Part shown: positions 8,764-63,717 of the stretch, piece by piece
Numbering within the stretch: the first letter of the stretch is position 1
Layout: every line of letters begins with the position of its first letter
NCBI GenBank assembly: GCA_963727865.1
Contig: CAVSHY010000017.1
Span: forward strand, 109 to 64,108
Length of the DNA stretch: 64,000 bases
Direction: 5' to 3'
From: an uncultured delta proteobacterium
Lineage (GTDB): Bacteria > Desulfobacterota > GWC2-55-46
Made by a program: the position numbers and the translations under genes
The notes under the pieces: generated by a model
Told to the model about the DNA's origin: nothing
The model's database searches: none
What the model saw: the letters and a program-made list of their open reading frames with translations, nothing else

Positions 8764-10953
8764 CTACTTCTTGAGTTTAAACCTTCTTATGCTCTCCATG
8801 AGGTTTTTATTCATTTCGGCCATTTCATCAAATGACCTGTCGGTCTCTTTTGTCTTCTCTATATTTTCCATGGATACCTTCCTCACCGTGTCTATGGCTT
8901 CAAGTACCTTTACGGTATTCCTGCTCTGGTCCCTGACCAGATGCTTGATGTGCGTGATTATCTTATTAAGTTCTTCCATCGTCGCGGTAATATGGTTATT
9001 CGACTCGACCTGCGATCTTGCAGAACCTTTTACCTTATACGCTATCTCCGCCATGCGTTCCGATGCTTTATTGATAAGCTCGCTGCCTCTGGCCTGTTCC
9101 TGCGTGGCGTTTACTATTCTCCGGGTCATCCCGGCGACCTTCTCAATCGCTTCCACAACCATGCGGCTTTGCCGTGCTTGTTCTCCCGCGGCCTTTGCTA
9201 TCTCCAGGACGCTGCCGGTCGATCTCTGGGCGCTGCCGACTATCTTTTTAAGTCCTTCTCCGGATTCTATAGAAAGCCTTGCCCCTTCTTCAGCGTTCCC
9301 AAACCCCTTTTCTATCGACTTGACGGCCCTTTCGCTCTCTATTTCAACCGCCTGGATTATCTCAGAGACCTCCTTTGCCGATGTGGAGGTCCTTTCAGCA
9401 AGGTCCTTCATCTCGTTAGCGACAACAGAGAAGCTCTTGCCGTGTTCGCCGGATTGCGCCGCTATAATGGCGGCGTTAAGGGCCAGGAGGTTTGTCTCCT
9501 CCGCGACATCCTGAATTACATTCAGAATTTTATTTATCTCCTTGATCCTGTCGCACAGGCTATTCATAATAAGGGTTGACTCGCCGGCGGTCTCCTTGAT
9601 CTTCATTATGCCGTCTATTGAGCGCTCCACGGTCTCCATCCCGGCCCTGGCGTCCCTTATAACGCCGTCCGCGAACCTGGCGGCTTCCGCGGCGTTCGTC
9701 TCAACTTCCTTGATCCGCGCGTTTATCTGCGCCATGGATGCAGATACCTGGGTTATTGCGGAAGAAAGGTTTTCAATATTTTCAGAAATCTCCTTTATTG
9801 AGAAAGACATGTCTTTGGTCGATTCCGCCGTCTCGTCCACGCTTGAAAAAAGCGATTCCATGTTGTCCGCGATCTCGTTCACGCTCGCGCCGAGATCAAG
9901 CAGAGAGGAAGAACCGCGCTCAATTAATGATGCGAATATCCCGGTCTCCCGGGATATCTCATCCACGAACGCACCGATTTCCTCCATATTCTCCCTGATG
10001 GAATCCAGTGTCATTCCCTGCTTGTTGGACCCCTCAAGCACGTGCCTGCTCATTTCCAATACCCTGTCAGAGATCTCCCCTTCTCTCTCGGAAGCACGCC
10101 GTATCTCTTCGATAGCACCGTGGAAGTTTCTTACCAGATCATTTATGCGGGCGGCGAGGTCCCCTATCTCATCGTTCGATTCCACGGACACTTCATTTGT
10201 GAGGTCGCCCATGGCAAGATATTTCGTATTGTCAGAGAGGTTCAATATCGGGGTTGTCACGACCCGCCTGATAAAGTAAAGTCCCGCGAGACCCATAAGA
10301 AGCATAACGGCAAACCCGTAGCCGATGGAACGCCAGACCCATGAGACAGCCGCTGCTGTCTCGTCCTGTATGGGCACTACGATCTCAAGGCCCCCGATAA
10401 CATCTCCTATCCTGTAATCCCTCCTGGGGCTGGACGGGTAACTATTATGGCAATCGACGCAGGTCTGCGAGGTGGCTATATCAGGCACCATGTACCTCAG
10501 GGACTCTACTCCGTTATATTTTTCAAAGCTGAAGCGCCTGGTGTCGGCGCCTTTGGAAAACAGTTCGAGGGCCTCCCGCTGAAAAGAATCCTTCGGCGCG
10601 CTGGCCGGGTTGATGGGACTGAGGCTTACGATCCCAATGTGAAAATCGCTTTCACCGCCTAAAGACTGCGCGACCTCTTTTATGAAAGTGGCGGGAAGAG
10701 GGATCGATTTGTCGATATCGTGATATGACCCGCTTACGGTAAGGCCCGCGTCCAATGCCCTTTTGACGACTGTGGCGGTATAGAATTGCCTATCCGCGGT
10801 TATTTCCCTTGAAAGGTAGCTTGCCGTCGTCAAAGCCATCCTTCTGGTCTGCGCGATCCTTTCCCTGTAGATATAAACGCCGTAGATCCCGAAAATGACA
10901 GTCCAGATCAAAACTGCGAATATTAATAACTTGACCCTGATGCTAAACCTCAT
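8764..10953 (-). CDS. Methyl-accepting chemotaxis protein with a periplasmic heme-c (DUF3365/Tll0287-like) sensor domain
   Basis: N-terminal TM helix, then a periplasmic domain ending in CVDCHNSYPSSPRRDYRIGDVIGGLEIVVP (CxxCH plus the DUF3365-type tail). A second TM helix, a HAMP domain and a long helical signalling domain with TNLLALNAAIIAAQSGEHGKSFSVVANEMKDLAE follow. ATG 10953 is preferred over GTG 10962. Confidence 0.85.
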   Translation of the reverse strand: MRFSIRVKLLIFAVLIWTVIFGIYGVYIYRERIAQTRRMALTTASYLSREITADRQFYTATVVKRALDAGLTVSGSYHDIDKSIPLPATFIKEVAQSLGGESDFHIGIVSLSPINPASAPKDSFQREALELFSKGADTRRFSFEKYNGVESLRYMVPDIATSQTCVDCHNSYPSSPRRDYRIGDVIGGLEIVVPIQDETAAAVSWVWRSIGYGFAVMLLMGLAGLYFIRRVVTTPILNLSDNTKYLAMGDLTNEVSVESNDEIGDLAARINDLVRNFHGAIEEIRRASEREGEISDRVLEMSRHVLEGSNKQGMTLDSIRENMEEIGAFVDEISRETGIFASLIERGSSSLLDLGASVNEIADNMESLFSSVDETAESTKDMSFSIKEISENIENLSSAITQVSASMAQINARIKEVETNAAEAARFADGVIRDARAGMETVERSIDGIMKIKETAGESTLIMNSLCDRIKEINKILNVIQDVAEETNLLALNAAIIAAQSGEHGKSFSVVANEMKDLAERTSTSAKEVSEIIQAVEIESERAVKSIEKGFGNAEEGARLSIESGEGLKKIVGSAQRSTGSVLEIAKAAGEQARQSRMVVEAIEKVAGMTRRIVNATQEQARGSELINKASERMAEIAYKVKGSARSQVESNNHITATMEELNKIITHIKHLVRDQSRNTVKVLEAIDTVRKVSMENIEKTKETDRSFDEMAEMNKNLMESIRRFKLKK

Positions 10954-11155
10954 AATCCTCACGTTCCTCTGAAGTTTCAGATAGGGGGCATTTTCAAAAA
11001 AACAACGTAACTACGGCTATTTACCCGATATTATAGTATAAACTGGCTTTTTACAAGATTTTTCTATTAACGGTTTGCGGGAAAAGGAGATCTCTCAGAA
11101 TGGAAAAATACATAAGTATCAAGGAGGATAGTTACCGTAAAAAACTTCATCGTGC

Positions 11156-12697
11156 CTACACAACGCGCTTAGCGGCTTTAAGGTCGCCATGAAACCTAAC
11201 AAGGCTTCTCAGGAACCGGCGCCTCTCTACGGCGGAAAACCATGCCGTTTTTATCCATGTCCTGTCGACAGACTTTTTTAGAACCGGGGGACGTCGACTG
11301 TTGATACGCTCCGTTAGCCATTCATTTCCTCTTCTAAAATGACAATCCCCCGTTACACAGCCGGCGATGAAAACCCCGTCGAAGAGTCCATCCTCGACCG
11401 ACATCGCGATCATCGAAGGTTGAAGCTGACCTATGCACTGAAGCGTCAGTACCCTGGCCCATTCAAACCCCTTAAGGCTTTCCCCGCCGTCCATATAAAC
11501 CCCTTTCGCGCAGGAAAATACTAAAACTTTCGTATCCTGCCCCTCTTCTTTAAGTTCTTCCGAAAGTCTCTTTATCTCGCTTTTTAAATAATCCTCGGTC
11601 ATATCCGGCAGGCTCATGGCCTTATAATCACAGGACCCGGTGCATACGCCGCAGCTCGCGCACCTCTTGGGATTAACCACGGCCTCGAGGTCATACGGCA
11701 TATCGTCAGTCCTCGGCCTCATCCGTATGGCCTCATAAGGGCAATCCTCCATGCAGAGCTCGCACCCCGTGCAATTCCTGTACGTTACAACGGCCGCAGC
11801 CTTGCTCTCTTCGCGCGTAAGCCAGGGCACTATTGCTACTATCATTGTAACCGAAACCACAAAGAGCCATACGGCGCGCGCCGGCATATGCCTTAAGAGC
11901 GGATAGACAAACATGAAAAGCCAGTCAAAGGGCACGGCTGGAGAGAGCTTTTTAAGGTCAGCCGGAGGAGCGCTTACCGCCGGGTGGATTAGCGCGATGA
12001 CGAGAAGCGTTATTACGACCGCGTAAGCCATTACCCGCGGCGGTGTGATTATCGCCTTCGTAATCCTGCTCAAGTGCACCATGAGCAGTATAAAGACGAC
12101 CACTATGGAGAAAAAGTGTATGACGAGTATTATGTAGAAGAACTCATCCGTGATATTTTGAATGCTTGCGAAACTGATACTGAGGGGCATTCCCAAAAAT
12201 GGCACGCTCTCCAGCATCCGCGATGAAAACAGGGCTATAAACTTCGCCCTTTCGTCCCAGACCATCCAGTACCCGAATATGCCGCCTATCCATATTATCC
12301 ACATTAAAATCACGCCCGATACCCACGCGATCCATCTCCAGCGCTTGTACCTGTCGAGCGCGTAGCAGCGAAGCGTATGCATGATGCCCGCGAAGACAAG
12401 ACCCTCGGCTGAGTACCTGTGGAGGCTCCTCATAACCCCGCCCAGATACCACTGATCTGCCGTAAGATGCTTAACAGAGTCGTAGGCGCCCCGCGCCGTA
12501 ATAGTATAGAATATGAAAAGGTATATCCCTGAAATAATGATTATCCAGAGGAAAAATATGCCTATCGCGCCTATATAATAAAAGGGGTTATATTCGGAGG
12601 TTGTCAGGGCGTCTATGGTCTTTTCAACACTGAGCCATAGTTTCTCAATAACGCCCGCGGCTTCGAACTTTCTTACGTTTTCAGTATTTTTTGCCAT
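11156..12697 (-). CDS. Fusion protein: di-heme cytochrome b (6 TM) + 2x[4Fe-4S] ferredoxin + MvhD/FlpD-like domain (copy 1)
   Basis: Cytochrome b His pairs at canonical spacing (SLHRYSAEGLVFAGIMH and VIHFFSIVVVFILLMVH). A PEWY-equivalent loop PFDWLF. Cluster motifs CTGCELCMEDCP and CASCGVCTGSC. The C-terminus LQCIGQLQPSM...DGVFIAGCVTGDCHFRRGNEW resembles MvhD. The start is ATG 12697. Confidence 0.85.
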   Translation of the reverse strand: MAKNTENVRKFEAAGVIEKLWLSVEKTIDALTTSEYNPFYYIGAIGIFFLWIIIISGIYLFIFYTITARGAYDSVKHLTADQWYLGGVMRSLHRYSAEGLVFAGIMHTLRCYALDRYKRWRWIAWVSGVILMWIIWIGGIFGYWMVWDERAKFIALFSSRMLESVPFLGMPLSISFASIQNITDEFFYIILVIHFFSIVVVFILLMVHLSRITKAIITPPRVMAYAVVITLLVIALIHPAVSAPPADLKKLSPAVPFDWLFMFVYPLLRHMPARAVWLFVVSVTMIVAIVPWLTREESKAAAVVTYRNCTGCELCMEDCPYEAIRMRPRTDDMPYDLEAVVNPKRCASCGVCTGSCDYKAMSLPDMTEDYLKSEIKRLSEELKEEGQDTKVLVFSCAKGVYMDGGESLKGFEWARVLTLQCIGQLQPSMIAMSVEDGLFDGVFIAGCVTGDCHFRRGNEWLTERINSRRPPVLKKSVDRTWIKTAWFSAVERRRFLRSLVRFHGDLKAAKRVV

Positions 12698-12877
12698 CAA
12701 GCAGAGGATCCTTTGAAAGGGCGCGGGTATGGTAAATTAACTTCTGCATTATAGATTTTTTTCAGGGTTTTGTTAAGACGGAAATGCCGGCACAAAATCT
12801 CTTTTAACCGCTCTAAAAGTGGTTTTGCGCCGGGGCGGGAATTCCCCCGGAGTACCGGGCGGTCCTTATCAAGGCTT

Positions 12878-13468
12878 TTATTCGAGGACGAGCTTATTGG
12901 TAGCGTTGTCGAACCTCAGGAGTAAAATCTGCCTTGGTTTTATGTCAACGGTTTCTTCTATGGTAAAATCAGGCTTATCTTTAGCGCCGCTGTCATATAA
13001 ACCGGCGGAAATCCTGTGAGTCCCAGGTTTTACAATGAACTCATCATACGCGTAAGAGGCCATATCCCTCTTTATACCCTTCGGTTTATAAGCCCTGTCA
13101 AGCATAATATTGCCATCAACGGAAAGCTCAACGACCACGGGGAACCTTTCACGCGGGCAGCCGGACAACCTTCCCATGTTCATTTTTATGCGTTTTTCCG
13201 TCTTAAGGATTTCGCGGTATCTTTCGCCCTCTTTCTTGATGACATCGGCCTCGTTGCAGTTCGCTATCCTTTTCCCGGTGTGCTGGAAGGCCACTTTTAT
13301 TGACGCCTCGCCGGGAGAATAGAACGAATAGGAAGAATTCGAAAGATAAAATACCGGCAAAGCAAACATAACCAAAAGGACCACTATGACTTTTATGAGG
13401 CTTACCATGTCAAACGGTTTTTCCCCGCCAGCTTCAACCGATTTTTTATTTGTATGAGCATTACCCAT
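12878..13468 (-). CDS. Membrane-anchored hypothetical protein (single N-terminal TM, beta-rich extracytoplasmic domain)
   Basis: 196 aa. TM helix LIKVIVVLLVMFALPVFYL followed by a beta-strand-like pattern. Its ATG lies 2 nt after the stop of the upstream cytochrome b fusion, which suggests translational coupling. No family recognised. Confidence 0.6.
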   Translation of the reverse strand: MGNAHTNKKSVEAGGEKPFDMVSLIKVIVVLLVMFALPVFYLSNSSYSFYSPGEASIKVAFQHTGKRIANCNEADVIKKEGERYREILKTEKRIKMNMGRLSGCPRERFPVVVELSVDGNIMLDRAYKPKGIKRDMASYAYDEFIVKPGTHRISAGLYDSGAKDKPDFTIEETVDIKPRQILLLRFDNATNKLVLE

Positions 13469-13470
13469 GT

Positions 13471-15006
13471 TTAAACGCTCCTTTTGTCATTAAGGTTCTT
13501 ATGGAACTCTCCGAGTTCCTCCAAAAGCGGGCCTTTTTCCACAGCCGACAGCCACGCGGTCTTTATCCTGCTTCTATCTATCGATTTTTTGACTACAGGC
13601 GTACGGTAACCGTTGATGCGTCCCGCGAGCCATTCGTTGCCGCGCCTGAAGCTGCAATCGCCCAACCTGCATCCGGCGATAAAAACCCCGTCGACCCCTT
13701 TTTCAAAAGGTATATCAAGCATCGACGGCTGGAGAGTACCTATGCACTGAAGGGTTATAACCCGCGCCCATTCAAAACCCCTGACCTTGCCGCCAGCGTC
13801 AATTGTATCGTCCGGCCAGGCGCCCATGGCGCACGCGAATACTATTACCTTCTTACCGCGAGATGCCCCCATAAGTTCATCCGAAAGCTTCCCTATCTCA
13901 TTTTTTACCGCTTCTTCAGTCAGATCGGGGAAGTTAAGCGCCCTGTAATCGCACGCCCCCATGCATACGCCGCAGCTCGCGCACCTGCTCGGAATCACGA
14001 CGGCCTCGAGCTCATACGGCATGCCGTCTGTCCTGGGCCTCATCTGAATCGCCCCGTACGGGCAGTCTTCCTTGCAGAGCTCGCAGCCGGTGCAATTCTC
14101 TTTATGCACTTCTATCTCAGGGGTCTTCCTTACGCGGGTCAGCCAGGGGATAATGCTTACCATGAGAACCACGGAAACTATAAAGAGCCACAGTTCACGC
14201 TCAGAGAGGTATCTCAAGAGCGGGAAGACAAACATGTAAAACCAGTCAAAGGGCACGGACTGCGGCAGCACCTTGAGGTCAGCGGGGGCGGCGCTTACGG
14301 CGGGGCGGAGGAACGCCAAAAGGAACAGCACGAAAACGAGCACGTAGGCGACTGCTTTCGGCGGGTTAATTACGGACCTGGCGACCCTGCCCAGATGTAT
14401 CATAACGAGGACCGTGACGACTATTATGGAGACAAAGTGTATGGCAAGGATGAGATAGAATACCTGGTCCGCCAGGTTTTCGATCCTCGCGAAGCTAATG
14501 CTCAAGGGCATCCCGAAAACCGGTATCGATTCGATCATCCGCGATAAAAATATCGCGATAAACTTCGCCCTTTCATCCCACACCAGTACGTAGCCGAAGA
14601 TGCCTCCTATCCATATTATGAGGACCATCATTATCCCGGTTACCCATGAGACCCATCTCGTGTGCTTATACCTGTCGAGCACATAATGGCGCACCCCATG
14701 GGTCAGGGCGGCGATGACCAGACCGCCGGAGGCGTACCTGTGAAGGCTCCTGATGATCCCGCCGAGATACCACTGATGCACGGTAAGGTACTCGACGGAG
14801 TTATACGCCCCTGACGCGCTTATACCGTAGAATACGAAAAGGTAGATGCCGGTAATAAAGATTATCCAGAGGAAAAAGATGCTTACCGCCCCGAGATAAT
14901 AAAAGGGGTTGTATTCGGAAGTCGTCAAAAGGTTTAAAAACTTCTCAATCTTAAGCCAGAGGCCCCAGAGCGGGCCCGGCCTTTTATATGCTCTCGCGCC
15001 TTCCAT
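13471..15006 (-). CDS. Fusion protein: di-heme cytochrome b (6 TM) + 2x[4Fe-4S] ferredoxin + MvhD/FlpD-like domain (copy 2)
   Basis: Paralogue of 11156-12697 with the same architecture: SLHRYASGGLVIAALTH, AIHFVSIIVVTVLVMIH, PFDWFYMF, CTGCELCKEDCP, CASCGVCMGAC, LQCIGTLQPSM...DGVFIAGCRLGDCSFRRGNEW. The start is ATG 15006. Confidence 0.85.
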   Translation of the reverse strand: MEGARAYKRPGPLWGLWLKIEKFLNLLTTSEYNPFYYLGAVSIFFLWIIFITGIYLFVFYGISASGAYNSVEYLTVHQWYLGGIIRSLHRYASGGLVIAALTHGVRHYVLDRYKHTRWVSWVTGIMMVLIIWIGGIFGYVLVWDERAKFIAIFLSRMIESIPVFGMPLSISFARIENLADQVFYLILAIHFVSIIVVTVLVMIHLGRVARSVINPPKAVAYVLVFVLFLLAFLRPAVSAAPADLKVLPQSVPFDWFYMFVFPLLRYLSERELWLFIVSVVLMVSIIPWLTRVRKTPEIEVHKENCTGCELCKEDCPYGAIQMRPRTDGMPYELEAVVIPSRCASCGVCMGACDYRALNFPDLTEEAVKNEIGKLSDELMGASRGKKVIVFACAMGAWPDDTIDAGGKVRGFEWARVITLQCIGTLQPSMLDIPFEKGVDGVFIAGCRLGDCSFRRGNEWLAGRINGYRTPVVKKSIDRSRIKTAWLSAVEKGPLLEELGEFHKNLNDKRSV

Positions 15007-15081
15007 CAACTTTTGTCCTCTTTTTAATTTATTTCTTTAAATCAGGAAACTCCAGGTCTGTCATGCTGCAGGCTCCGATCT

Positions 15082-15912
15082 TCAGGGGCCGCGCCCAAAA
15101 CGCCTTCTCGAAAAATTCAGCATCCTGCGGCCCCATACCGCGATGAATACGGCCCCGATAAAAAGAAACTCCAGGAAGAAACCGACCAGCGTCGGATAAT
15201 CTATAACATTCCTGCCCGTAACGGGATCATACCTGGTACAGAAAAAAGCTATCCTTGTTATCAATGAAGTGGTTCTTGAAGTCTGCGCTTTCCCCGTAAG
15301 GAGTTCTTCTATCCTCAAGCCGATTGAATTTGACTGGGTCCTTACGCCGTATACCTGCTTATAGATAACGCCGTCAGGCCTTATGACCGACGCCATATCT
15401 ATATGGTCAAAACCGCCTGTATCATTCCGTACATGGAAAAAACCGAATTGCCCGGTCAGCTTTTCCATCGTCGCCTCATCGGATGTGGCAAACCTGAAAT
15501 TCCTGAAGTCCGAAGTAAAACGGCGCCCATACTCCTTGAGTTTTTCAGGCTTATCCCTTGCGGGGTCGAAGGCTATGCTTAAGACGTTAAACCTGTCGCC
15601 GAACTTTTGCCGCGCCTCGTTGACAGCCTTTTTAAATTCCGCCGTTATTGTCGGGCAGACATCCTTACAGGTCGTGTATATGAAACTTACCACGAGGGGT
15701 TTACCGGTCTTAAAATATTCGCTCAGCTTAAATCCCGCGCCGTCCTGGTCAATCAGGTTATAATCGTCAAGCCTTGCGCCTTCCGCCCTTGCGGAGTTTT
15801 CAAAGGCTTTCCTCAGCGCCTCGACATCCGCGTCCCGCGCGAAAACGCCTGAAGGCAGCAAAAACATCATTAAAGCCGGCAAAAAATATGCGATCCTGTA
15901 ACACGGGTTCAT
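15082..15912 (-). CDS. SCO1/SenC family copper chaperone (thioredoxin fold), with a signal peptide and a C-terminal TM anchor
   Basis: CxxxC motif in FIYTTCKDVCPTITAEF and a downstream His (GGFDHID). The sequence is SCO1/SenC-like overall. The C-terminal hydrophobic helix is LVGFFLEFLFIGAVFIAVW. Confidence 0.85.
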   Translation of the reverse strand: MNPCYRIAYFLPALMMFLLPSGVFARDADVEALRKAFENSARAEGARLDDYNLIDQDGAGFKLSEYFKTGKPLVVSFIYTTCKDVCPTITAEFKKAVNEARQKFGDRFNVLSIAFDPARDKPEKLKEYGRRFTSDFRNFRFATSDEATMEKLTGQFGFFHVRNDTGGFDHIDMASVIRPDGVIYKQVYGVRTQSNSIGLRIEELLTGKAQTSRTTSLITRIAFFCTRYDPVTGRNVIDYPTLVGFFLEFLFIGAVFIAVWGRRMLNFSRRRFGRGP

Positions 15913-16281: not shown

Positions 16282-17802
16282 TTACCCCTCTATCTTCTTA
16301 CCGAAGAAAATCGTTCCGAAGGCTATCAGTATGAAAAGAAGCCCTCCCACAACAGCTAATATCGCTGCTATGGCGAACGCGCTCAGGAACAGGAACGCGG
16401 TCGGGTCGAAGCTGAAGGGAAACGTCGCGCCTGAGAACGTTACGTCATAATGCCTTCTCGGTATGCCGAAGATACCCGAGCTCATCATGAATATCGACTG
16501 AAGCCCGATGGCTATGCCATAAAGATAGGGCTGGATCTGCGCCAGGCCTTTCCAGATAATCCTTCTCCTGAAGACATAGGGGATGAGGAGATAGGTGAAG
16601 CCCATGAAAGCGACCGTGGTGCCGGCGACGACCGTGCCGTGGAAGTGGCCTGTTATCGCCCAGGTATTATGACGGATGATATTATACTGGAGGGTGCCGA
16701 AGATGACGCCAGTGATACCGCCTATAAAGCCGAAGTTAAAGATCGAGATCACGATCCCGGAGAAAGCCGGATTACCCCACGGGGCCTTTTTAAGCCACTC
16801 GAAAAGCCCTCTCGTGTGGCCCTGCTCCCTGAGAGCGACTTCCATGGACGCGGGTATCGCGAAGGCATGGATCATGCTCGCCAGGACCGCCAGATGCATG
16901 ACGTAGCCGGTGTTCGCTATCTTATGCCAGGTGCCGATGACCGGGTCGACGAGCAGGTGGTGCTCGGAGGCGACGTTAATGAAGAGTATGTATAATATGA
17001 AGGCCGTTCTTGAGAGCTTTTCATTTACCGGCTTGCCGCCAAGAACCAGCGAGGAGGTCATGTACCATACCGCGACCATCGCGCAGACGTTTATCTGCTG
17101 CGAAGCGTGGCCAAGGCCCCAGAATACAAGCCTGTAGGCCGAGGGGTTTATCGACGGAATGTAGTCCAATGACCATAACAATGTCGGCACAAATATCCCG
17201 GCGCCGTGAAGGAGAGTAAAAATCCCTATTATGCTCGCCGCGCCAATGCCAAAGGTCCCGAGGGGAAGCGACCTCTTATACCCCCCCTCTCTCTTGGAGA
17301 GGGTTATGTTTACGAAGAAGAGTATGAATCCTAATAAGGCGCCTACGGCAAAGAGTATGACGCCGACGTAATAAAGAGGATCGGCCCTTAAAGGAACGTA
17401 GGAGGTGAATAAAACGTCTCCCCCTCCCATCAGGACCACGACGTTAATGACCGCCCCGCCTATAAGCATGAGCGCGAAGCCAAGCCACCCCAGACCCGGC
17501 CAGTGAGACCGGGTGCCAAGAAGCGCGGCAGAGGCGAAATGAACGAGCGCGATCTCGAAAAAGATTATCCACGCGAGCAAGGCGTCTATGCCGTGCAGCG
17601 TCAGAAACCTGTAGAAGAAAACAAGCGGAAGCAGATGCACGCTTGGCCACCTTGTCATCGCGACCAAGAAAGCAAAAAGCCCGCCTACCGCCAGGGTCGC
17701 GAAGGCCGCTATCAAGTTCCACTTGATAAGGTTAGCCGTGCCCTTGTCAATCCTGGCCTTAAGGCCGTCAAAGGGACTTTGCCATAGATCCAAGTCTGCC
17801 AT
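16282..17802 (-). CDS. Heme-copper oxidase superfamily subunit I, ba3 (B-family)-like but lacking the cross-linked Tyr (HASQQ); possibly NO-reductase-type
   Basis: 506 aa and about 12 TM helices. By-eye alignment with Thermus ba3 CbaA covers FLTLHG (heme b His), FWGLGHASQQ (ba3 has WWTGHPIVY), SEHHLL (ba3 has GFHHQF) and NTWAITGHFHGTVVAG (ba3 has NTAWVPGHFHLQVASL). Confidence 0.9.
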   Translation of the reverse strand: MADLDLWQSPFDGLKARIDKGTANLIKWNLIAAFATLAVGGLFAFLVAMTRWPSVHLLPLVFFYRFLTLHGIDALLAWIIFFEIALVHFASAALLGTRSHWPGLGWLGFALMLIGGAVINVVVLMGGGDVLFTSYVPLRADPLYYVGVILFAVGALLGFILFFVNITLSKREGGYKRSLPLGTFGIGAASIIGIFTLLHGAGIFVPTLLWSLDYIPSINPSAYRLVFWGLGHASQQINVCAMVAVWYMTSSLVLGGKPVNEKLSRTAFILYILFINVASEHHLLVDPVIGTWHKIANTGYVMHLAVLASMIHAFAIPASMEVALREQGHTRGLFEWLKKAPWGNPAFSGIVISIFNFGFIGGITGVIFGTLQYNIIRHNTWAITGHFHGTVVAGTTVAFMGFTYLLIPYVFRRRIIWKGLAQIQPYLYGIAIGLQSIFMMSSGIFGIPRRHYDVTFSGATFPFSFDPTAFLFLSAFAIAAILAVVGGLLFILIAFGTIFFGKKIEG

Positions 17803-18005: not shown

Positions 18006-18140
18006 TCAGCGGACGTTCCAGACCTCTACAAGCCATTTCAGGTGCGCGAACCACGCTATCATGAATGTCGCCAGGAATATTAAAGCCAGGACAAATACGC
18101 CGGGGGCTTCCATATGTTCGCCGTGCTTTTCGTCTGACAT
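18006..18140 (-). CDS. Small single-TM subunit (ba3 subunit IIa-like), 44 aa; absent from the ORF track
   Basis: GGAGGCAAAG precedes the ATG. Translation is MSDEKHGEHMEAPGVFVLALIFLATFMIAWFAHLKWLVEVWNVR, with one hydrophobic helix. It lies between the subunit II and subunit I genes, the position occupied by the third small subunit in ba3-type operons. Confidence 0.55.
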   Translation of the reverse strand: MSDEKHGEHMEAPGVFVLALIFLATFMIAWFAHLKWLVEVWNVR

Positions 18141-18170: not shown

Positions 18171-18698
18171 TTATTCTTTTACGTACAATTTCCCCGCCAT
18201 CGTATGATGGCCGAAGCCGCAGAACTCGTTGCAGATGATATGAAACTCGCCGGAGGTCGTCGGAGTAAGGGTAAGCACGTTGTCATATCCGGGGAAGACC
18301 ATGAAGTTCATATCAATGGGCTGGAGCGAAAAGCCGTGGTTGAGGTCCATGGATGATATATGGAACTTATAGGTCTTACCCTTCTCGAGTTCGAGTATCG
18401 GATACCATTCCCACATCTTGGCCCTCAGGAAAACGGGCTCGTTCGCCGGCGGGTGAACTATCGGCATGCCCTGTTCCTCGCCGACCTTGTATTTCGACAC
18501 CATGTTCTCGGTAAGCTTGTCGTAGTCTTCAGGGGTGATCGTATATGTCTCATTGGGCGGGTTATGCGCGCCGATCACTTTGTATACGGGCATGAAGAAA
18601 AAAGTAAAGAGCGCCCATATAAGCGCCACGGTTACCCACAACCTCTCATCCTTGCTGAGAGGCTTCCACCAGATTCTTTCAGGCTCATGTATTGCCAT
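18171..18698 (-). CDS. Heme-copper oxidase subunit II with a CuA cupredoxin domain (ba3-type)
   Basis: One N-terminal TM helix. CuA ligands are present: DLNHGF ... ICNEFCGFGHHTM (CxExCGxxHxxM). The C-terminus resembles ba3 CbaB (EYRIICNQYCGLGHQNM). ATG 18698 is preceded by AAGGAGGA. Confidence 0.9.
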   Translation of the reverse strand: MAIHEPERIWWKPLSKDERLWVTVALIWALFTFFFMPVYKVIGAHNPPNETYTITPEDYDKLTENMVSKYKVGEEQGMPIVHPPANEPVFLRAKMWEWYPILELEKGKTYKFHISSMDLNHGFSLQPIDMNFMVFPGYDNVLTLTPTTSGEFHIICNEFCGFGHHTMAGKLYVKE

Positions 18699-18711
18699 TC
18701 TCAAATCCTCC

Positions 18712-18879
18712 TTATTGAGCTATATAGAGCGCGGGCGGCGTTAAATAAAATATGTCTATAAGCCCCCATACCGTAAAGATCACGGTCGGTATAATAAGGC
18801 CCAGGACCAACCATAAATACATATTGTCATAAATGGCCTGGTTCCCCGGGTAAGGCCCTTCTTTCCTGTCCGCATGCAT
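18712..18879 (-). CDS. Small membrane protein (55 aa), first gene of the oxidase operon
   Basis: GGGAGGAG lies 6 nt upstream of ATG 18879. Translation is MHADRKEGPYPGNQAIYDNMYLWLVLGLIIPTVIFTVWGLIDIFYLTPPALYIAQ, with one TM helix. It ends 8 nt before the subunit II ORF. Confidence 0.5.
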   Translation of the reverse strand: MHADRKEGPYPGNQAIYDNMYLWLVLGLIIPTVIFTVWGLIDIFYLTPPALYIAQ

Positions 18880-19280
18880 AGGCGCTCCTCCCTTCAGATT
18901 TATTATTACGGTTTTTAAAAATCGTACCAATAGAATATTAACAATAGCGTATACCGTAAATGACTTTTGTCAACCTTTTAAAAATAGACGGTGTTTTTTT
19001 AAAATTAAAAATTAAGCTGAATCGGAGATGTGTTACCCGGATATTTCCCTTTAAATGGCCGGTTAAACCTGCCGGGTTTTTAGCGTCGGGAGACAGCCAA
19101 GGTTCCTTCGATTTAGAACGCAAAGCGGGCGCCGGGCGAATTGGACTTGCGTACACTTTAGTATGAAGGAGAAAAACATGTAAAATCAACCTAATTAGAA
19201 TTTTTTTCAATTTTACATCAACTTTTTAAGGCTGTCAAATCAGGGGGTAGAGATTACGCGATAAAAACAAAAAAAGAACA

Positions 19281-19303
19281 GGCAGGCCCTTTAGCGGCCT
19301 GCC
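19281..19303 (-). terminator. Rho-independent terminator after the porin (pseudo)gene
   Basis: Stem GGCAGGCC/GGCCTGCC with a 7-nt loop. On the minus strand it is followed by a long T-rich run (TGTTCTTTTTTTGTTTTT). Confidence 0.7.
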
Positions 19304-19343: not shown

Positions 19344-20791
19344 TTAGAAGTTCGCCGTAAGCTGAAGATACGCCCAGTCCTGAGCAGTATTTGACGCGCC
19401 TACGTTGTCCTTTATCCATGTACCGGGGATAAAGTGGCCGTAGCCTACCTCGGCTGTTACCGCGTTATTGTACTTGTAGGTTCCCACGAGGTCAATTTCG
19501 TTCCCGAGGGTCTTGTTTGTGCTGGCGACGGTTCCGGCAGGAGCGATGGCAGTGGCTCGCTCCATTAGCGATACCCGCGCTATTCCATTTTCCGGCCTGG
19601 TACCACGCGTCTTCCTTCTGCGCGAGGTTGAAGTTCCACCACGCGGCATAGAGCCTGACCTTATCCATCGGTTCCGCGCTCACGTTCAGGTTGAAGGCGC
19701 TGATGTTCCTCCACGCTACGAGGTCCATGAGGCCGAGCTTGTCGTGGTTCGTCGGGAAGAGGTTGGAGAAGGTCTTATTATCGACGTGTCGGTGCTGTTT
19801 GTGCCTGTGGCGTAGTCATACTCGACGCCCACGTTGACCTTGTTCGGTATCGGGAGCGTGTAGTTTGCCTTTGCCGCGACGGCGTAAGCGTTTAACTTGT
19901 CGTTCGCGCCTATTGCGGTTGCGTTGGTTGAGGGGTGGTTGCTTCCGGTCTGGAAGGGCACTTCAACGCCGTAATCAAACCCCATGTAAGAGCCCGCGAG
20001 CCTTGCGCCGAAAGTATTAAGTGTTGCGCCCTTTGTAGGCAGAGTCGCGAGGGCGGTAGTGCCGCCAAAAGGATTGGAGGTGCAGAAGCTTGAAGGAGTA
20101 ATAACACCGGCTGTAGTGCAGCCGACGTTTCCGTCCCTGACGAGCAACGCGTAGACATCGAGGGTATTGTTCGGGATCGCCTTTATAGTGGCGTATACGA
20201 CCCCAGAAGTCAACGTCATTGCCTGAAACGGTAGTGGCAGTCGGCGTCGCGCTGGTCGCCATGTTTCTTTCGGTCAGCTTTGACCACCATGCGTCTACAT
20301 TGAACATGTCAGAGGCGTAGACGAACTTCAAGGCGTCGAACGCCCTTCCCTGGTTGGACCAGCCAAACGAGCCCACGAGCCTCTGGTCGCCGTAGACGAG
20401 TTCCTGCCGTCCGGCCTTTAACGCTACCGGCGCGCCGAGGAGGTTATCTATGTTCACGTATGCCTCGTGCACGTCAATAGCATTGGCTGATCGCCGTTGG
20501 TCAGGTGCAGGTCCCGCCAGCCGAAGCGAGCCCTTCCTGGCCCCATGTCCTTGAGTCCTGTAGTGTTATCTTCAGCGTTGTGTCGTCCGTAGCCTTTACG
20601 TTGGCCGTGAGCCTTGTCCTCTCGAGCCAGAAGTCCTGCGCGTCCTTGGTGTTCTTGTTAAAATGAAGGCTGTCCCTCCACTCGGTCCTCAGTCTTTCCT
20701 GTCCGCTGAATGTGACATCCGCCGCGTTTGAGGGTGCTGCCCACGCAACTGCGACAGCCGCCGCAAAAACCGACAATAAAATTCTCTTCAT
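19344..20791 (-). pseudogene. Outer-membrane beta-barrel porin (alginate-export/AlgE-like family) broken by at least five frame changes
   Basis: Four ORF-track fragments in three frames join into one protein. The pieces are the signal peptide MKRILLSVFAAAVAVAWAAPSNA, then HEAYVNIDNLLGAPVALKAGRQELVYGDQRLVGSFGWSNQGRAFDALKF, and the C-terminal barrel signature ...DWAYLQLTANF. Frame changes are near 20515, 20485, 20203 (a C4 run), 19788 and 19560. Confidence 0.7.
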
Positions 20792-21213: not shown

Positions 21214-22190
21214 TTAGATTACCCCGGCTTTTACGAGGTCATGCATGTGCACTACCCCGATGACCGCGCCGTTATCCCCGTCATATACGAATAGCGAAGT
21301 TATGGAGTGCTCCTCCATCATCCTTAAAGCCGCCTCCGCAAGCGACCCTTTCGGGATCAGCTTGGGGCTTCTATTCATAACATCCCTGACTCTTTTATTA
21401 AGGATGTTATCCCCCTCTGAAAGCGCCCTTCTCAGGTCCCCGTCGGTTATGACCCCGGCGAGCTTATGCTTTCCCTTTCCAATGAAGACCCCGGCGACGC
21501 CCAGCCGTTTCGCGGTAATCTCGACTATGACGTCTTTCATCGGCGTATCCGTGGACACCCTCGGAACAGCGTCCCCTGTGTGCATTAGGTCCTCGACCTT
21601 CATGAACCTTCTCCCGATGCTTCCGGCGGGGTGAAGCGCGGCGAAGTCCTCTACCCTGAACCCGCGCCTCTCGAGGAGGGCGATAGCCAGGGCGTCCCCC
21701 ATGGCGAGGCACGCCGTGGTGGATGCGGTGGAGAGAGCCCCAGGGGGCACGCCTCCTCTTTGACCCCGACGTCGAGGGTAACGTCGCTATTTTGCGCGAG
21801 GGTCGAGTCCTTTTTCCCGGTCATCGCTATCATCCTGATGCCAAGCCTCTTTACGACCTGGAGTATCTTTATAAGCTCCGCGGTCTCTCCTGAATTTGAG
21901 ACCGATAGAAGTATGTCGTTTTTCATGACCATCCCGAGGTCCCCGTGCACGCCTTCCGCCGGGTGGAGGAAAAAGGCGGAGGTGCCGGTGGAGGCGAAAG
22001 TGGACGCTATCTTCTGGCAGATTATCCCGCTTTTGCCCATCCCGCTCACGACGACCTTCCCCGTAGTTGAAAAAATCATCTCAACCGCTTTTGAAAAATT
22101 CCCGTCTAACCTGTCAATGAGCGATTTTACCGCCCGGGATTCTATCTCAAGGACCCGCTTCGCGGTAACTATGGCAGTATCTTGCTTCAT
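21214..22190 (-). CDS. kdsD: Arabinose-5-phosphate isomerase KdsD (SIS + 2 CBS), interrupted by one frameshift in this sequence
   Basis: The N-terminal ORF has the SIS domain (GMGKSGIICQKIASTFASTG). The C-terminal ORF continues with STASTTACLAMGDALAIALLERRGF plus tandem CBS domains. The junction is at the G5/C5 run 21743-21747. Adding one base restores ...EEACPxGALSTASTTA. Confidence 0.85.
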
Positions 22191-23160: not shown

Positions 23161-24835
<1,675 letters not shown>

Positions 24836-32346: not shown

Positions 32347-33543
32347 ATGGTTTTAGCGGGTAAGGGGACTGTTGAAAAAGTTTTCCGTTTAAGTGTTTTA
32401 TCTTTATCGGGTCTTGGAGTATTATTATTTTTACTTGCAATTTTTCCTGTAAAATCCGGCGCGATGCCCTTTTTCGCGCGGCAGACAGGAAGGGACTGCG
32501 TCTACTGCCATTCTGTTTACCCCAAACTCAATGAGACAGGGCTAAACTTTCGCGCTAACGGCTACCGGATTGAAGGTCAGGAACTTAAAGAAGTGAAGGA
32601 CTGGGCGTCGATCCCGGCGTCCATGGAGATAACGGTCGCCGGTGAATACAGCGACAATAAGGCAAATGGCAATAGCACCACGGTATCGGGGATAAGAATA
32701 GAGGATGTCGAACTTTCGGCTGGCGGCGCCATGAGTAAAACCGGGAGAGTATCCGCGTTGGGCACCATTTCAGTGGAACAGGGTAATGCCAATGATACCA
32801 ACGCTACGATACAGAAAGCCTTTGTACAGGTAAATGACCTTATGGGCCAGGAGGGGAAAGGGCTTCTTAATGTCAGGGCCGGCCAATGGGAAATAGGTTT
32901 GCCTTTCTTGAGCCCTAGAGAAACCGTCCTAAAGAATAAATATATGACCGAAACGGTCCTGAACGCCTTTACCCTGAATCAGAAGGCCGTTGAACTTAAC
33001 GGTTCCATGAATTTCGAAGAGGGCTCGAAACTTACCGCGCAACGTTACTCTTTAGGCATAGCAAGCCAGGATATTAACAGCGCCAATAAGTTAAAAGCCT
33101 TTTACTTGACCTACGCCCTTACCGTCAGCGAGTTCATGAACGTGGGAATCTTATACAGGAACGGAACAGAAAAAAACAGCGACGGGACTATGGATGTCTC
33201 CTTTAATAAATACGGCATAGGGGTAGAGGGTGAAACAGGCCCCTTCATATTGAGCGCCGGGATTTTCAGGTCTGAAAGGAGCGGAGAAAATTCGCAGGAA
33301 GATTTTCTGGCGGAAGCGCTTTACAGGGCGCCGGTTCCGGGCGTAAGCGCCGGAGGGCGGCTTGAAGCCGTTCAACAATCGGGTAAAAAGACCGCGCATG
33401 CGCTTAGTCTATTCGGAAGATATGACATCATCATGAACGTCTTCACACAGCTTGAATATGATTACCTCAGCGATGCAAGCCACCTCTCCGGCCCAAACGA
33501 CAGAGAAAGCAGGGTTAACCTGTTTTTAGCGGCTGCATTCTAA
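32347..33543 (+). CDS. Fused monoheme cytochrome c / outer-membrane beta-barrel protein (Cyc2-like)
   Basis: A signal peptide, then MPFFARQTGRDCVYCHSVYPKLNETGLNFRANGYR with a single CxxCH directly after the cleavage region. About 330 aa of alternating beta-strand pattern follow, ending in ...RVNLFLAAAF (terminal Phe, an OMP signature). GAGGAGGG lies upstream of the ATG. Confidence 0.7.
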   Translation: MVLAGKGTVEKVFRLSVLSLSGLGVLLFLLAIFPVKSGAMPFFARQTGRDCVYCHSVYPKLNETGLNFRANGYRIEGQELKEVKDWASIPASMEITVAGEYSDNKANGNSTTVSGIRIEDVELSAGGAMSKTGRVSALGTISVEQGNANDTNATIQKAFVQVNDLMGQEGKGLLNVRAGQWEIGLPFLSPRETVLKNKYMTETVLNAFTLNQKAVELNGSMNFEEGSKLTAQRYSLGIASQDINSANKLKAFYLTYALTVSEFMNVGILYRNGTEKNSDGTMDVSFNKYGIGVEGETGPFILSAGIFRSERSGENSQEDFLAEALYRAPVPGVSAGGRLEAVQQSGKKTAHALSLFGRYDIIMNVFTQLEYDYLSDASHLSGPNDRESRVNLFLAAAF

Positions 33544-34236: not shown

Positions 34237-34893
34237 TTACTCTTCCACCGTTATCATTCCTATCATACTCTGATGGATAAAACAGAGATAGTAATATTCA
34301 CCCGCTTTTTCAAATTTATGTTCCCAGCTCTCCCCCGGATTTACAGTCGGCGAAAATATCCCGCCCATGCCTATAAACGGCATGGAGGCGAATATATGGC
34401 CGTTAACACCATTATTTACCCATCTGACGGTCCCGCCTTTTTTAATGATGATATTGTCGGGTCTGAAGGTATTTTTTTCGGTTTCCGTCGGTTTCGGGGT
34501 TTCAATAATATACACTCCGTTCGCGGCGGCAGGACGGATAGCGGAGGTAAGCTTGGACTCAAAGATTTTTTTCTTGGCGTTCTTCAAAGGCTCAAAATCA
34601 CCGGTTACATCTTTGTAGGTTTTCGCCATGGATTCCGCTATGAAGAGTTTTGAATCCCTTTCTTCCTTTGTCGCCTGAGGTAGAAAAGATTCGTCGATGA
34701 TCGCCTTAATCTCCGCCGGGATTTTATCCTTGTTTTCTTTAACGATTGAACCCATCTTGACGGCGTCGTTCTTTTCAAAAGCCTCTACGAAACTTTTAGT
34801 AATCTCGGACTCGGCTGAAAAACCCGGGCTGCTCAAGGCAAAAAACGAAGAGAAGGTTAAGGCAAAAATAAAACCAGACCTTTTTAAATTCAT
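34237..34893 (-). CDS. Secreted cupredoxin (type-1 blue copper protein, amicyanin/plastocyanin-like C-terminal domain)
   Basis: Signal peptide. The C-terminal domain has the Cu ligands VNGH... and YYYLCFIHQSM (Cys-x2-His-x2-Met spacing, as in amicyanin). The N-terminal ~110 aa are of unknown function. Confidence 0.7.
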   Translation of the reverse strand: MNLKRSGFIFALTFSSFFALSSPGFSAESEITKSFVEAFEKNDAVKMGSIVKENKDKIPAEIKAIIDESFLPQATKEERDSKLFIAESMAKTYKDVTGDFEPLKNAKKKIFESKLTSAIRPAAANGVYIIETPKPTETEKNTFRPDNIIIKKGGTVRWVNNGVNGHIFASMPFIGMGGIFSPTVNPGESWEHKFEKAGEYYYLCFIHQSMIGMITVEE

Positions 34894-45539: not shown

Positions 45540-46556
45540 ATGAAAACTAAAGTATATATTTTAGGTGCTGGAGCTTCGAAACCAGCTGGTTGTCCCCTGA
45601 TAAAAGATTTCATTGGTGAAGGTTTTTTTCATTTAATAAATAATTCTGCCTTTCCTGACAATTTAAGTAATTACATAGAATTTTGTAAATATTTAAAAGA
45701 AAAATATAAGTTTGATTTTTGTAATTCTGGTCGTTCAGATCTCTTAGCATTTTTGTGTTATCAGAAAATAGACATAGAAACAATAATATCGGAACTTGAT
45801 AAAGAAATTCGTCAAGGCAAGAAAGATTTGATAGAAGCAAGACGGCAGGCTGTAAGATTTGTTTATGCCACTTTAGAGAATGCAGCCAGGGATGGTTCTA
45901 ACGAAGACTGTTATCCAGATTTCGTAAAAAACAAAATCGTAAACTTAGATGATGAACATGTGATAATTACTTTTAACTATGAAACTTGCTTAGAAAAGGC
46001 TATCCAAGATAAATTTCGTTATTATTTTTCATATTTATTAGATGTGGATAAAGATAAAATTATACATTTTCATAGTTATCAAAAAAAATATACTAATAAT
46101 CTGAAAATACTGAAATTGCATGGTTCATTAAATTGGGCTATATGCTCCGGCTGTAATAAGATACATTTATTTTGGTCACATAAATATGATGATATTTTTA
46201 AAGAAAAATGCAAAAACTGCGATCACAGTCTAGACTCGATCTTAATTGCCCCAACAAAATATAAAGAGCTTGATAAAAATTTAGAGAAGCTCTGGGACAT
46301 CGCAAGGGAGAAAATTATAGCAGCAGACGAAATTGTTATTATCGGATATGCTTTTAATGAATATGACAAAGAAGCTTTCAAGTTGTTTGGAGAGTCCATA
46401 AAATGTAATAAAAAGTCTCCTATGCTTTTTATTGCAGACCCTAATGCATGTGATATATACAAAAAGATTACTTCTAACTTCTCGGTGAAGGATGAAAATT
46501 TTTCTAATAGAGTTTTTTCCCAAGGGTTTAGAGAATACATCAACATATGCCTTTAA
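45540..46556 (+). CDS. Stand-alone SIR2_2-type (sirtuin-like NAD-utilising) protein with a zinc ribbon
   Basis: 338 aa. N-terminal YILGAGASKPAGCPL, IITFNYETCLE (catalytic Asn context), LKLHGSLNW (catalytic His), CSGCNK...CKNCDH zinc ribbon, and VIIGYAFNEYD. The gene is strongly AT-rich: 7/60 and 19/60 G+C in two spot-counted lines, against 27/60 in the adjacent OsmC-family gene. Confidence 0.7.
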   Translation: MKTKVYILGAGASKPAGCPLIKDFIGEGFFHLINNSAFPDNLSNYIEFCKYLKEKYKFDFCNSGRSDLLAFLCYQKIDIETIISELDKEIRQGKKDLIEARRQAVRFVYATLENAARDGSNEDCYPDFVKNKIVNLDDEHVIITFNYETCLEKAIQDKFRYYFSYLLDVDKDKIIHFHSYQKKYTNNLKILKLHGSLNWAICSGCNKIHLFWSHKYDDIFKEKCKNCDHSLDSILIAPTKYKELDKNLEKLWDIAREKIIAADEIVIIGYAFNEYDKEAFKLFGESIKCNKKSPMLFIADPNACDIYKKITSNFSVKDENFSNRVFSQGFREYINICL

Positions 46557-46694
46557 TACAATTTAATATTGAGTAAACGTTATTTAAAAGAGAGGTTAAG
46601 TCTTTGACTAGTAATGAGCAATTCATACTGTTTTCTCTCTGGCCTTTGTCTTTCTCTTTATCCTCTGCCCTTAATCACCCTTCAGACCGCCCGT

Positions 46695-47120
46695 TTATTC
46701 CGCCAGGTAGTGCCCAATCAAATCAAGCCATTCTTCGAAAGAAGCGCATTTTCCAATTTCCCATCCTTTGCAAATCCTCGCTTCCGGTTCATCAGAAACT
46801 TTCATAAACGCTGCGTAAGTGGAGTTATCGCCTAAGTCGACGATATAGTGTTCCTCAACAATCTTATTTAAATACAAGGGAGTAAACTTTGATATCAGGA
46901 TAAAACACTTATCCATCTTTACGTTATAGTGGTTCCGAAAATCCCACTGCGGCGAAACATCTTTATCGGTATTGGCGGCACTGTAAACTTGAAAGTACTC
47001 TCTTGCGTTTTCCCCACACTCCTTCCGCAATTTAGAGATGTCCTTTGCATAGCTTGAATTTGCATAGGCTATGAAAGAAAAGAGCAAAATTGACAATATC
47101 AACATAAACCGTTTTTTCAT
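46695..47120 (-). CDS. Secreted hypothetical protein (4 Cys)
   Basis: GGAGGTG precedes ATG 47120. The signal peptide is MKKRFMLILSILLFSFIAYANSSYA. No family recognised. G+C is below the window average. Confidence 0.55.
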   Translation of the reverse strand: MKKRFMLILSILLFSFIAYANSSYAKDISKLRKECGENAREYFQVYSAANTDKDVSPQWDFRNHYNVKMDKCFILISKFTPLYLNKIVEEHYIVDLGDNSTYAAFMKVSDEPEARICKGWEIGKCASFEEWLDLIGHYLAE

Positions 47121-47150
47121 AAGCACCTCCGTAAAGTGAATCTCCGCGCG

Positions 47151-47160
47151 CCCCCCCCCC
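47151..47160. repeat. C10 (G10 on the minus strand) homopolymer tract about 30 nt upstream of the 47120 start codon
   Basis: Directly visible as cgcgcg-cccccccccc-tgctcg. Confidence 0.9.
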
Positions 47161-47198
47161 TGCTCGACTTTTAACATCTCTCTAAAACTTTTACTTTA

Positions 47199-62424: not shown

Positions 62425-62500
62425 AATTTAATTTAAGTTATTTTTGAAGTTCATGGAGCGCGCCCGGGAGGAACCTGTCCCGGGCGCGATAGGGAAGATT

Positions 62501-63034: not shown

Positions 63035-63062
63035 GGTTTTGCGGTCTGCTTTAATTAAAAAC

Positions 63063-63107
<45 letters not shown>

Positions 63108-63693: not shown

Positions 63694-63717
63694 TTTTCTA
63701 TCTATCTATATTAAAAA

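Follow-up and report, generated by a model that had tools for sequence, protein, structure and literature searches.

Two tandem fusion genes in an eNOR-type operon

We analysed a 64,000-nucleotide stretch of DNA, hereafter the window, from an uncultured delta proteobacterium of the Desulfobacterota (assembly GCA_963727865.1, contig CAVSHY010000017.1, positions 109 to 64,108 of the forward strand), which carries on its minus strand two tandem genes for proteins that join a cytochrome b to a two-cluster ferredoxin module and an MvhD/FlpD domain. A preliminary description had presented these paralogues of about 512 aa as a possibly undescribed, quinone-linked iron-sulfur (FeS) module. The pair is as it described: copy 1 (11156..12700, minus strand) encodes 514 aa and copy 2 (13471..15009, minus strand) 512 aa, and the two are 59% identical over their full length. 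Both open reading frames (ORFs) open with TTG-ATG, so the ATG is the probable true start, giving 513 aa for copy 1 and 511 aa for copy 2; P0001, which is 99% identical to copy 2, is likewise 511 aa long. In copy 2, cytochrome b helices A-F occupy ~14125-14952, the 2x[4Fe-4S] module ~13915-14121 and the MvhD/FlpD domain ~13489-13848 (minus strand). Copy 1 holds the same three modules with the full ligand set (cytochrome b ~11801-12628, Fer4 ~11591-11803 and FlpD ~11177-11515, minus strand).

Searches against Pfam located all three domains on one polypeptide, as the preliminary description had proposed: each copy matched Cytochrome_B (PF00033, 60-64 bits), Fer4 dicluster families and FlpD (PF02662, 55-66 bits against a gathering score of 22.3). 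The di-heme core with His pairs 14 residues apart is equally solid, since the four heme-ligand His, with i/i+14 spacing on helices B and D, are invariant in 18 aligned family members and kept in 142-143 of 143 in a larger alignment. The eight Cys of the ferredoxin module are kept in at least 141 of the 143, and the three to four Cys of the MvhD domain are essentially invariant in the family alignments, four of them aligning with Cys of the solved MvhD 5odc_D (E = 5.5e-14). More than 300 full-length database proteins share this architecture, which refutes the possibility that the cytochrome b and FeS parts were joined here by an indel. The NCBIfam models matched only parts of the fusions, always far below their cut-offs. 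Membership in HdrA2 was rejected (NF040770, 108-119 bits, cut-off 1100), as only model positions 569-777, corresponding to the Fer4 plus FlpD half, were matched and the HdrA flavoprotein core was not. The ExtP b-type cytochrome model (NF040969) was likewise dismissed at 86-101 bits for the cytochrome b half against a cut-off of 290, and the SoxC model gave a weak match of 30-35 bits (cut-off 740). With HdrA2 and ExtP scoring this low, the earlier remark that the proteins match no characterised enzyme stands.

Directly upstream of the fusions and on the same strand lie genes for a SCO1/SenC copper chaperone (15082..15912, minus strand; Pfam), a heme-copper oxidase (HCO) subunit I (16282..17802, minus strand) and a CuA subunit II (18171..18704, minus strand). 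Subunit II has a transmembrane (TM) anchor followed by a cupredoxin domain with the CuA motif CNEFCGFGHHTM, and it matches the CoxB and NosZ C-terminal models. Subunit I is B-family-related, its best solved relative being T. thermophilus ba3 (128 bits); it reads GHASQQ at the position of GHPIVY in ba3, so that Gln takes the place of the cross-linked active-site Tyr (Y237), a replacement described as diagnostic for eNOR (PMC8756737). An oxidase of Ferrigenium scored 502 bits against the window subunit I, and this homologue is termed eNOR in two papers, one being bioRxiv 10.64898/2026.01.22.701106; for the eNOR of R. marinus, NO-reductase activity has been demonstrated (PMC11214002). Judged by its Tyr-to-Gln replacement and its CuA subunit II, the neighbour previously called an atypical oxidase is of the eNOR type. 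We also considered sNOR and the 'norSY-senC-orf1' cluster of ammonia-oxidising bacteria (AOB), which has a similar gene order, and set them aside because the active-site residue is Gln (eNOR) rather than Asn.

The two copies bracket a gene for a 196-aa protein, p196 (12878..13468, minus strand), with an N-terminal TM anchor and a periplasmic beta-sandwich. Its start lies 2 nt past the copy 2 stop, with AAAGGAG inside the end of copy 2, in agreement with the translational coupling noted before. What that account missed is that most family members carry p196 as a fused domain. No Rieske, cytochrome c1/f or Hdr gene had been seen in the window, and motif scans and Pfam searches agree: no window ORF contains a CxHxGC...CxxH motif, Pfam found no Rieske domain among the neighbours, and neither an HdrB CCG motif nor a c1/f-like gene was found in the window. 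The operon proteins are devoid of CxxCH, which leaves no cytochrome c1/f or fused c-type heme among them. The related loci that we inspected hold no Rieske gene either, and no Mvh hydrogenase or HdrABC is encoded as a partner in them or in the window.

The fusion is a near-constant member of the eNOR operon

To characterize the gene neighbourhood across related loci, we called genes from our own ORFs and phmmer matches, and took as informative the 49 loci with at least 4.5 kb of upstream sequence. This analysis revealed a recurrent order of subunit II, subunit I, SCO1, fusion and p196 (82 related loci, across phyla). A strong HCO subunit I match was present in 46 of the 49 informative loci, and SCO1 lay upstream on the same strand in 47, so the association of the fusions with SCO1 and HCO genes is conserved. 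All 55 linked HCO-I proteins carry GH[SPA]SQQINV, that is, Tyr replaced by Gln throughout. When loci were picked on HCO-I similarity alone, the fusion was present in 4/4, two of which adjoin nirS/nirJ. The adjacency to SCO1 and the oxidase reported in the preliminary description therefore holds, and the genes lie directly upstream; the picture of mere neighbours does not, because the fusion is a near-constant member of the eNOR operon. Genes for nirS/nirJ are adjacent in L005, L088 and L089, and the Desulfobacterota loci, the window included, have no nir genes nearby. L003, the closest complete genome, is syntenic with the window and has a single fusion copy.

The p196 of the window aligns with residues 532-693 of the long form P0078 (39% identity, E = 1e-46), and the domain is fused C-terminally in 85/141 family representatives (60%); it is fused or encoded by the next gene in 75 of 77 loci. 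Fusion to the cytochrome b protein in 60% of representatives makes p196 a physical partner. Predicted alone, p196 reached a pLDDT of 83.9. Across the family, two of its Cys are each conserved in 89% and two of its His in 84-87% of sequences, and one Arg and one Gly are invariant. Cupredoxin, Rieske, Sco and PCuAC-like identities were each considered for it and rejected, as it has no family match and no significant fold match in the PDB.

Several further features were seen in these loci. Hemerythrin-domain genes lie in or beside the eNOR/fusion cluster in different lineages (L086:8719-9192, L087:5371-6066 and L088:11728-12123), and in L088 a Crp/Fnr-type regulator is also adjacent, in addition to nirS/nirJ. 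A divergent COX1-like gene (~460-490 aa, Pfam COX1 32-76 bits) stands beside p196 or the fusion in ~30/82 loci, e.g., L001:8144-9559, L031:12299-13762 and L069:12130-13521, and is not found in the window. In its product the His of helix II, the first of the CuB His residues (GGGH) and the HYH of helix X are retained, while the CuB 'HH' reads [IL]Y in 30/30. From these residues it looks like a two-heme HCO-like protein that would be without a normal CuB site, and it may be the 'eNOR scaffold protein' of the Ferrigenium preprint. The only split case of the fusion was L089:9612-11285, where a cytochrome b part (278 aa) and a Fer4+FlpD part (200 aa) were called separately, 235 bp apart, on a contig of 7x coverage; the split may be genuine or the product of an indel error.

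A widespread family with recurrent paralogue pairs

The family is both large and already named. An exhaustive search returned 398 clusters (50% identity) at E<=1e-30, and a scan of species-representative genomes gave at least 593 confirmed stretches. Carriers include Desulfobacterota metagenome-assembled genomes (MAGs), Nitrospinota, Nitrospirota, Zetaproteobacteria and Gallionella, as well as Thioalkalivibrio denitrificans, Beggiatoaceae and Woeseiaceae, a set rich in Fe, S and nitrite lithoautotrophs. In databases the homologues are called only 'hydrogenase iron-sulfur subunit' or 'cytochrome b N-terminal domain-containing protein'. Kao & Hunte 2014 defined a 'PDWF-FeS' cytochrome b clade with the same fused domains (PMC4122944), and a 2026 preprint on Ferrigenium straubiae flags an orthologue (P0109), together with a sister in which an FNR-type module forms the tail, as 'rather unusual' eNOR operon genes, detects all four proteins in the proteome and speculates that, in a supercomplex, the reduction of NO is coupled to that of NAD+ (10.64898/2026.01.22.701106). 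The module can accordingly no longer be called undescribed. Literature on Nitrospinota and on MvhD fusions yielded nothing relevant. The family is thus common, yet has no established function: it is widespread, known and functionally uncharacterised, and is represented in the window by a duplicated gene.

A neighbour-joining tree built on the cytochrome b region groups copy 1 and copy 2 each with its counterpart in L006, the nearest MAG, and places the two resulting pairs as sisters within a single-copy Desulfobacterota clade. This pairing indicates that the duplication is lineage-specific and not recent. The gene was duplicated independently in Nitrospirota/Nitrospinota, Zetaproteobacteria and Thioalkalivibrio, and in Gallionellaceae one duplicate has its tail swapped for Fer2-FAD-NAD, giving the FNR-tailed sister. 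Cytochrome b is dimeric in the bc1 and b6f complexes, and the recurrent paralogue pairs suggest heterodimers. Used as a query toward the AOB 'orf1', the FNR-tailed sister retrieved, among the 120 matches listed, solely Gallionellaceae relatives (at least 76% identity).

One CxxCH motif is present in 11/141 near-full-length family representatives. A Chloroflexi ORF, RME88945.1, is reported to combine a class-I cytochrome c with cytochrome b6, FeS and FlpD domains (PMC8756737, Table A3); it would be a family variant with a built-in periplasmic heme.

A cytochrome b scaffold with a Qo-type pocket and a cytoplasmic FeS tail

The membrane part of the fusions superposes on bc1 cytochrome b over helices A-F (~290-320 aligned columns). 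The preliminary description had noted two extra TM helices and a degenerate PEWY loop, PFDWLF, and this loop is indeed the ef-loop equivalent: the family motif is PFDW[FL], with FDWF or FDWL in the window copies. The Asp at PEWY position 2 is kept in 141 of the 143 aligned members and the Asp of the cd loop in 143 of 143. An impression that the 'DW' motif is rare, given by its literal pattern (57/141), was discarded, because the alignment shows the Asp to be near-invariant and the Trp alone to vary. The heme cn-binding Cys of b6 is a Tyr in the fusions (FYYLGA versus FYCLGG), and we found neither a Qi site nor the heme cn Cys nor helices G-H in them, the FeS tail following after only six TM helices.

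AlphaFold2 (AF2) modelled a natural long form with a pLDDT of 88.4 and a pTM of 0.87. In the model, six TM helices lead into the FeS-MvhD region, which is alpha/beta and cytoplasmic, and a seventh TM helix then connects to the beta-sandwich. The model agrees with the cytoplasmic side previously assigned to the FeS domains, and, given the seventh TM helix after the cytoplasmic region, the beta-sandwich must be periplasmic. By alignment, a Qo-type scaffold is retained on the periplasmic side. The quinone link that the preliminary description had proposed is plausible in view of the two conserved Asp.

A probable dedicated redox partner of eNOR

Taken together, we consider it very probable that the fusions and p196 are a dedicated redox partner of eNOR. 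Their near-constant place in the eNOR operon argues that the fusion probably wires eNOR to the quinone pool and the cytoplasm. Each protein joins a Rieske-less cytochrome b, which has two b hemes and, towards the periplasm, retains a Qo-type pocket, to a cytoplasmic tail of 2x[4Fe-4S] and an MvhD-type [2Fe-2S] site that stands in the place of the Qi side. The fusions and p196 would serve as operon-encoded accessory subunits of the eNOR-type NO reductase, in a supercomplex that would probably contain a cytochrome b dimer. A Rieske-less quinol-oxidising module docked to eNOR is favoured by the retained Qo scaffold, the replacement of the heme cn Cys by Tyr and the FeS tail after helix F.

In the mechanism that we propose, quinol would be oxidised at the Qo-like pocket, and the high-potential electron would pass through the CuA of eNOR to NO. 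The second electron would cross the membrane from heme bL to heme bH and on to the FeS/MvhD chain, reaching a low-potential cytoplasmic acceptor. In the window proteins this would be a ferredoxin-like carrier, and in the FNR-tailed Gallionellaceae sisters NAD(P)+. Thermodynamically, the NO/N2O couple can pay for such bifurcation, as estimated from standard potentials. Whether electrons run in this bifurcating direction we rate at somewhat below an even chance, and the full model, a Rieske-less 'bc-type' supercomplex of eNOR, fusion(s) and p196 that splits quinol electrons between NO (via CuA, downhill) and ferredoxin or NAD(P)H (uphill), is offered tentatively.

Several observations weigh against this model. 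At the Qo-like site there is no Rieske or other obvious mobile one-electron acceptor, and the Trp of the PEWY-equivalent motif is kept in only 67/143 members. FNR-type modules on membrane hemes usually send electrons outwards. p196 has no Pfam or NCBIfam match and no significant Foldseek match in the PDB (best E = 0.007); it lacks a recognisable cofactor fold, and its two Cys and two His are just 84-89% conserved. The neighbourhood statistics describe the 80 loci most similar to the query, the related loci numbering 82 in the gene-order survey. Heterotrophic denitrifiers, which have no need of reverse electron flow, are among the carriers (Magnetospirillum, and Alicycliphilus for the FNR form; PMC4122944), and the Ferrigenium preprint deems cytochrome b genes unusual for eNOR operons (10.64898/2026.01.22.701106).

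Electrons may instead flow the opposite way. A cytoplasmic reductant could feed the FeS/MvhD chain, heme bH, heme bL and, at the periplasmic face and possibly through a bound quinone, the CuA of eNOR, yielding a cytoplasm-fuelled NO reductase useful in detoxification. For the window proteins the donor would be reduced ferredoxin or a partner that docks to MvhD, and for the sister with the FNR tail it would be NAD(P)H. The operon and fusion evidence bears on such an outward supply exactly as it does on the bifurcating supercomplex. The FNR-tailed sister resembles the NOX/FRE-type flavocytochromes and flavohaemoglobin, for which NAD(P)H is the donor, and the lack of nir genes near the Desulfobacterota loci suits detoxification in anaerobes rich in low-potential reductant. 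A plain wire, however, needs neither helices E-F nor the cd loop nor a near-invariant Qo Asp, the outward path would dissipate membrane potential, and no gene for a cytoplasmic donor is conserved in the cluster. We regard outward supply as possible but doubtful.

Two further explanations were weighed. A Qo-type pocket that has been kept, an FeS/MvhD tail on the cytoplasmic side and the normal docking of MvhD to HdrA-type partners encoded elsewhere are what one would expect of a NarI- or Hdr/Qmo-like redox loop between the quinone pool and a cytoplasmic FeS partner, co-regulated with eNOR, without direct electron exchange, only because both serve denitrification. Its link between the quinone pool and Hdr-type FeS chemistry was the reading of the preliminary description. 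We find this explanation unlikely: across phyla the fusion gene is flanked by SCO1 and p196 inside the operon, the cytochrome b protein carries the periplasmic p196 as a fused domain, and no Hdr or hydrogenase gene is linked in any inspected locus. The position directly after SCO1, in turn, would suit a transmembrane reductase that feeds the periplasm during assembly of CuA or another metal site by reducing Cu(II) or the thiols of Sco1 or p196, analogous to the FRE-type cupric reductases. The two conserved periplasmic Cys and two His of p196 and the metalloreductase-like character of the FNR-tailed sister lend this maturation role some appeal, but a chaperone would hardly need five redox centres and a retained quinone pocket, paralogue pairs have repeatedly been retained, the protein was detected in the proteome alongside eNOR, and p196 lacks a Sco-, PCuAC- or thioredoxin-like fold. 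We judge a role in maturation very unlikely.

How electrons reach eNOR-type NO reductases is not established, and for the characterised enzyme of R. marinus the assay relied on TMPD/ascorbate as an artificial donor. The fusion family is the near-constant operon partner of one large eNOR clade, carried by Fe(II) oxidisers, sulfur oxidisers, Nitrospirota, Nitrospinota and groundwater Desulfobacterota. If NO reduction is coupled to the quinone pool and to low-potential cytoplasmic carriers, the energy balance assumed for denitrification would change, N2O production by lithoautotrophs would need another interpretation, and a Rieske protein could no longer be assumed to be required for Qo-type chemistry. 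Should the bifurcating supercomplex in particular prove true, NO respiration would power reverse electron transport, Fe(II), sulfur and nitrite lithoautotrophs would gain a direct route to low-potential reductant, and Qo-type bifurcation would proceed without a Rieske protein. Cultured carriers (M. magneticum AMB-1, Thioalkalivibrio denitrificans ALJD and F. straubiae KS) make the question directly testable. For annotation, 'hydrogenase iron-sulfur subunit' is a misleading name for the fusions, as is 'cbb3-type oxidase subunit I' for the linked eNOR.

Other features of the operon and the window

The operon likely starts at a sigma-70-like promoter match, TTGACA-17-TAAAAT (19210..19238, minus strand; 11/12, a consensus match only), just upstream of which lies a terminator-like hairpin (19281-19303). 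A second promoter-like site, TTAACA-17-TATAAT (12748..12776, minus strand; 11/12), stands in the 177-bp gap before copy 1, and a terminator-like hairpin marks the end of copy 1 (11148..11165, minus strand), both again as consensus matches only. Two small hydrophobic ORFs flank subunit II: one of 72 aa with no Pfam match upstream of it (18712..18930, minus strand), whose position is taken by a 52-aa ORF in the syntenic L003, and a single-TM ORF of 44 aa between subunits II and I (18006..18140, minus strand), which has a 44-aa counterpart at the equivalent position in both L003 and L087. The two may encode small oxidase subunits comparable to subunit IIa of ba3.

Directly downstream of the operon lies a gene for a methyl-accepting chemotaxis protein (8764-10962, minus strand) with a Tll0287-like sensor domain and a CVDCH heme-c motif; a chemotaxis protein gene occupies the equivalent position in L003, and it may encode a sensor for redox, NO or O2 taxis that is linked to the operon. 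A gene for a plastocyanin/azurin-family copper protein of 218 aa (34237-34893, minus strand) lies about 16 kb away from the operon. Near it is an ORF of 398 aa that contains one CxxCH and matches no Pfam family (32347-33543, plus strand), and both are candidate periplasmic electron carriers for CuA.

Three genes look disrupted (19344-20791, 21214-22190 and 23573-24826, all minus strand): a porin gene (Alginate_exp in L003) is spread over four ORFs in different frames, KpsF (SIS+CBS) over two overlapping ORFs, and CTP synthase measures 417 aa against 576 aa in L003. These are frameshifts or pseudogenes, or else assembly indels. A SIR2_2-domain protein (45540-46556, within the region 45540-48173) adjoins a low-GC stretch at 46001-48000 (0.41 against ~0.50 for the window), and the two may form an acquired or defence island. 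A second low-GC stretch, 62001-64000, lies at the window end.

Comparison with known systems

The fusions share with the cytochrome b of bc1 and b6f complexes the A-F fold, the 14-residue His spacing, a b6-like 'GY..WD' cd region and the acidic residue at PEWY position 2. They differ in having no Rieske protein, no c1/f and no helices G-H, in the Tyr at the heme cn Cys position of b6, and in the FeS tail that replaces the Qi side. That tail repeats the Fer4-then-MvhD order of the HdrA2 C-terminus (model positions 569-777); unlike MvhD and HdrA2 systems, the fusions have no HdrA flavoprotein core and no linked hydrogenase or HdrBC, and the module is anchored to a membrane cytochrome.

In the SoxABCD quinol oxidase of Sulfolobus, SoxC is a Rieske-less cytochrome b homologue within a heme-copper oxidase complex. 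The window resembles it in that a cytochrome b homologue is co-encoded with HCO subunits I and II and no Rieske protein. SoxC has no FeS tail, however, and its oxidase reduces O2; the complex described here is a predicted one. A functional analogy only is offered by the Rieske/cytochrome b complexes of anammox bacteria, which are proposed as NAD(P)H makers (PMC12954380): the shared idea is that a cytochrome b complex sends some quinol electrons to a high-potential acceptor and others to NAD(P)+ or to a carrier of low potential. The anammox complexes keep the Rieske protein and have separate subunits.

Much closer is the eNOR operon of Ferrigenium straubiae (genes 2878407323 and 2878407319), in which P0109 (38% identity) is the 'cytochrome b + [Fe-S]' gene and stands in the same cluster with eNOR II, eNOR I and sco1, and from which the proteins are expressed. 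In Ferrigenium, one MvhD-type copy is accompanied by one of the FNR type, by a gene for heme o synthase and by a divergent COX1-like gene, whereas the window has two MvhD-type copies and no FNR-type, heme o synthase or COX1-like gene. The preprint takes the cytochrome b genes as a Ferrigenium peculiarity.

The PDWF-FeS clade (PMC4122944) has the same composition as the window copies, i.e., a cytochrome b including the Qo-motif region, 4Fe-4S clusters and MvhD (delta subunit), with Rieske absent from the cluster, and it includes a sister with ferredoxin and flavin oxidoreductase domains (Alicycliphilus denitrificans BC). Its motif is PDWF, compared with FDWF/FDWL in the window. The paper treats three proteins only (from M. 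magneticum AMB-1, Turneriella parva and Alicycliphilus denitrificans BC) and gives no function, eNOR link or p196. On the sequence evidence of shared domains, the Qo-region Asp and the missing Rieske protein, the window copies are probably members of the PDWF-FeS family, to which the present analysis adds a systematic link to eNOR, the Rosetta-stone fusion with p196 and a near-invariant Qo Asp.

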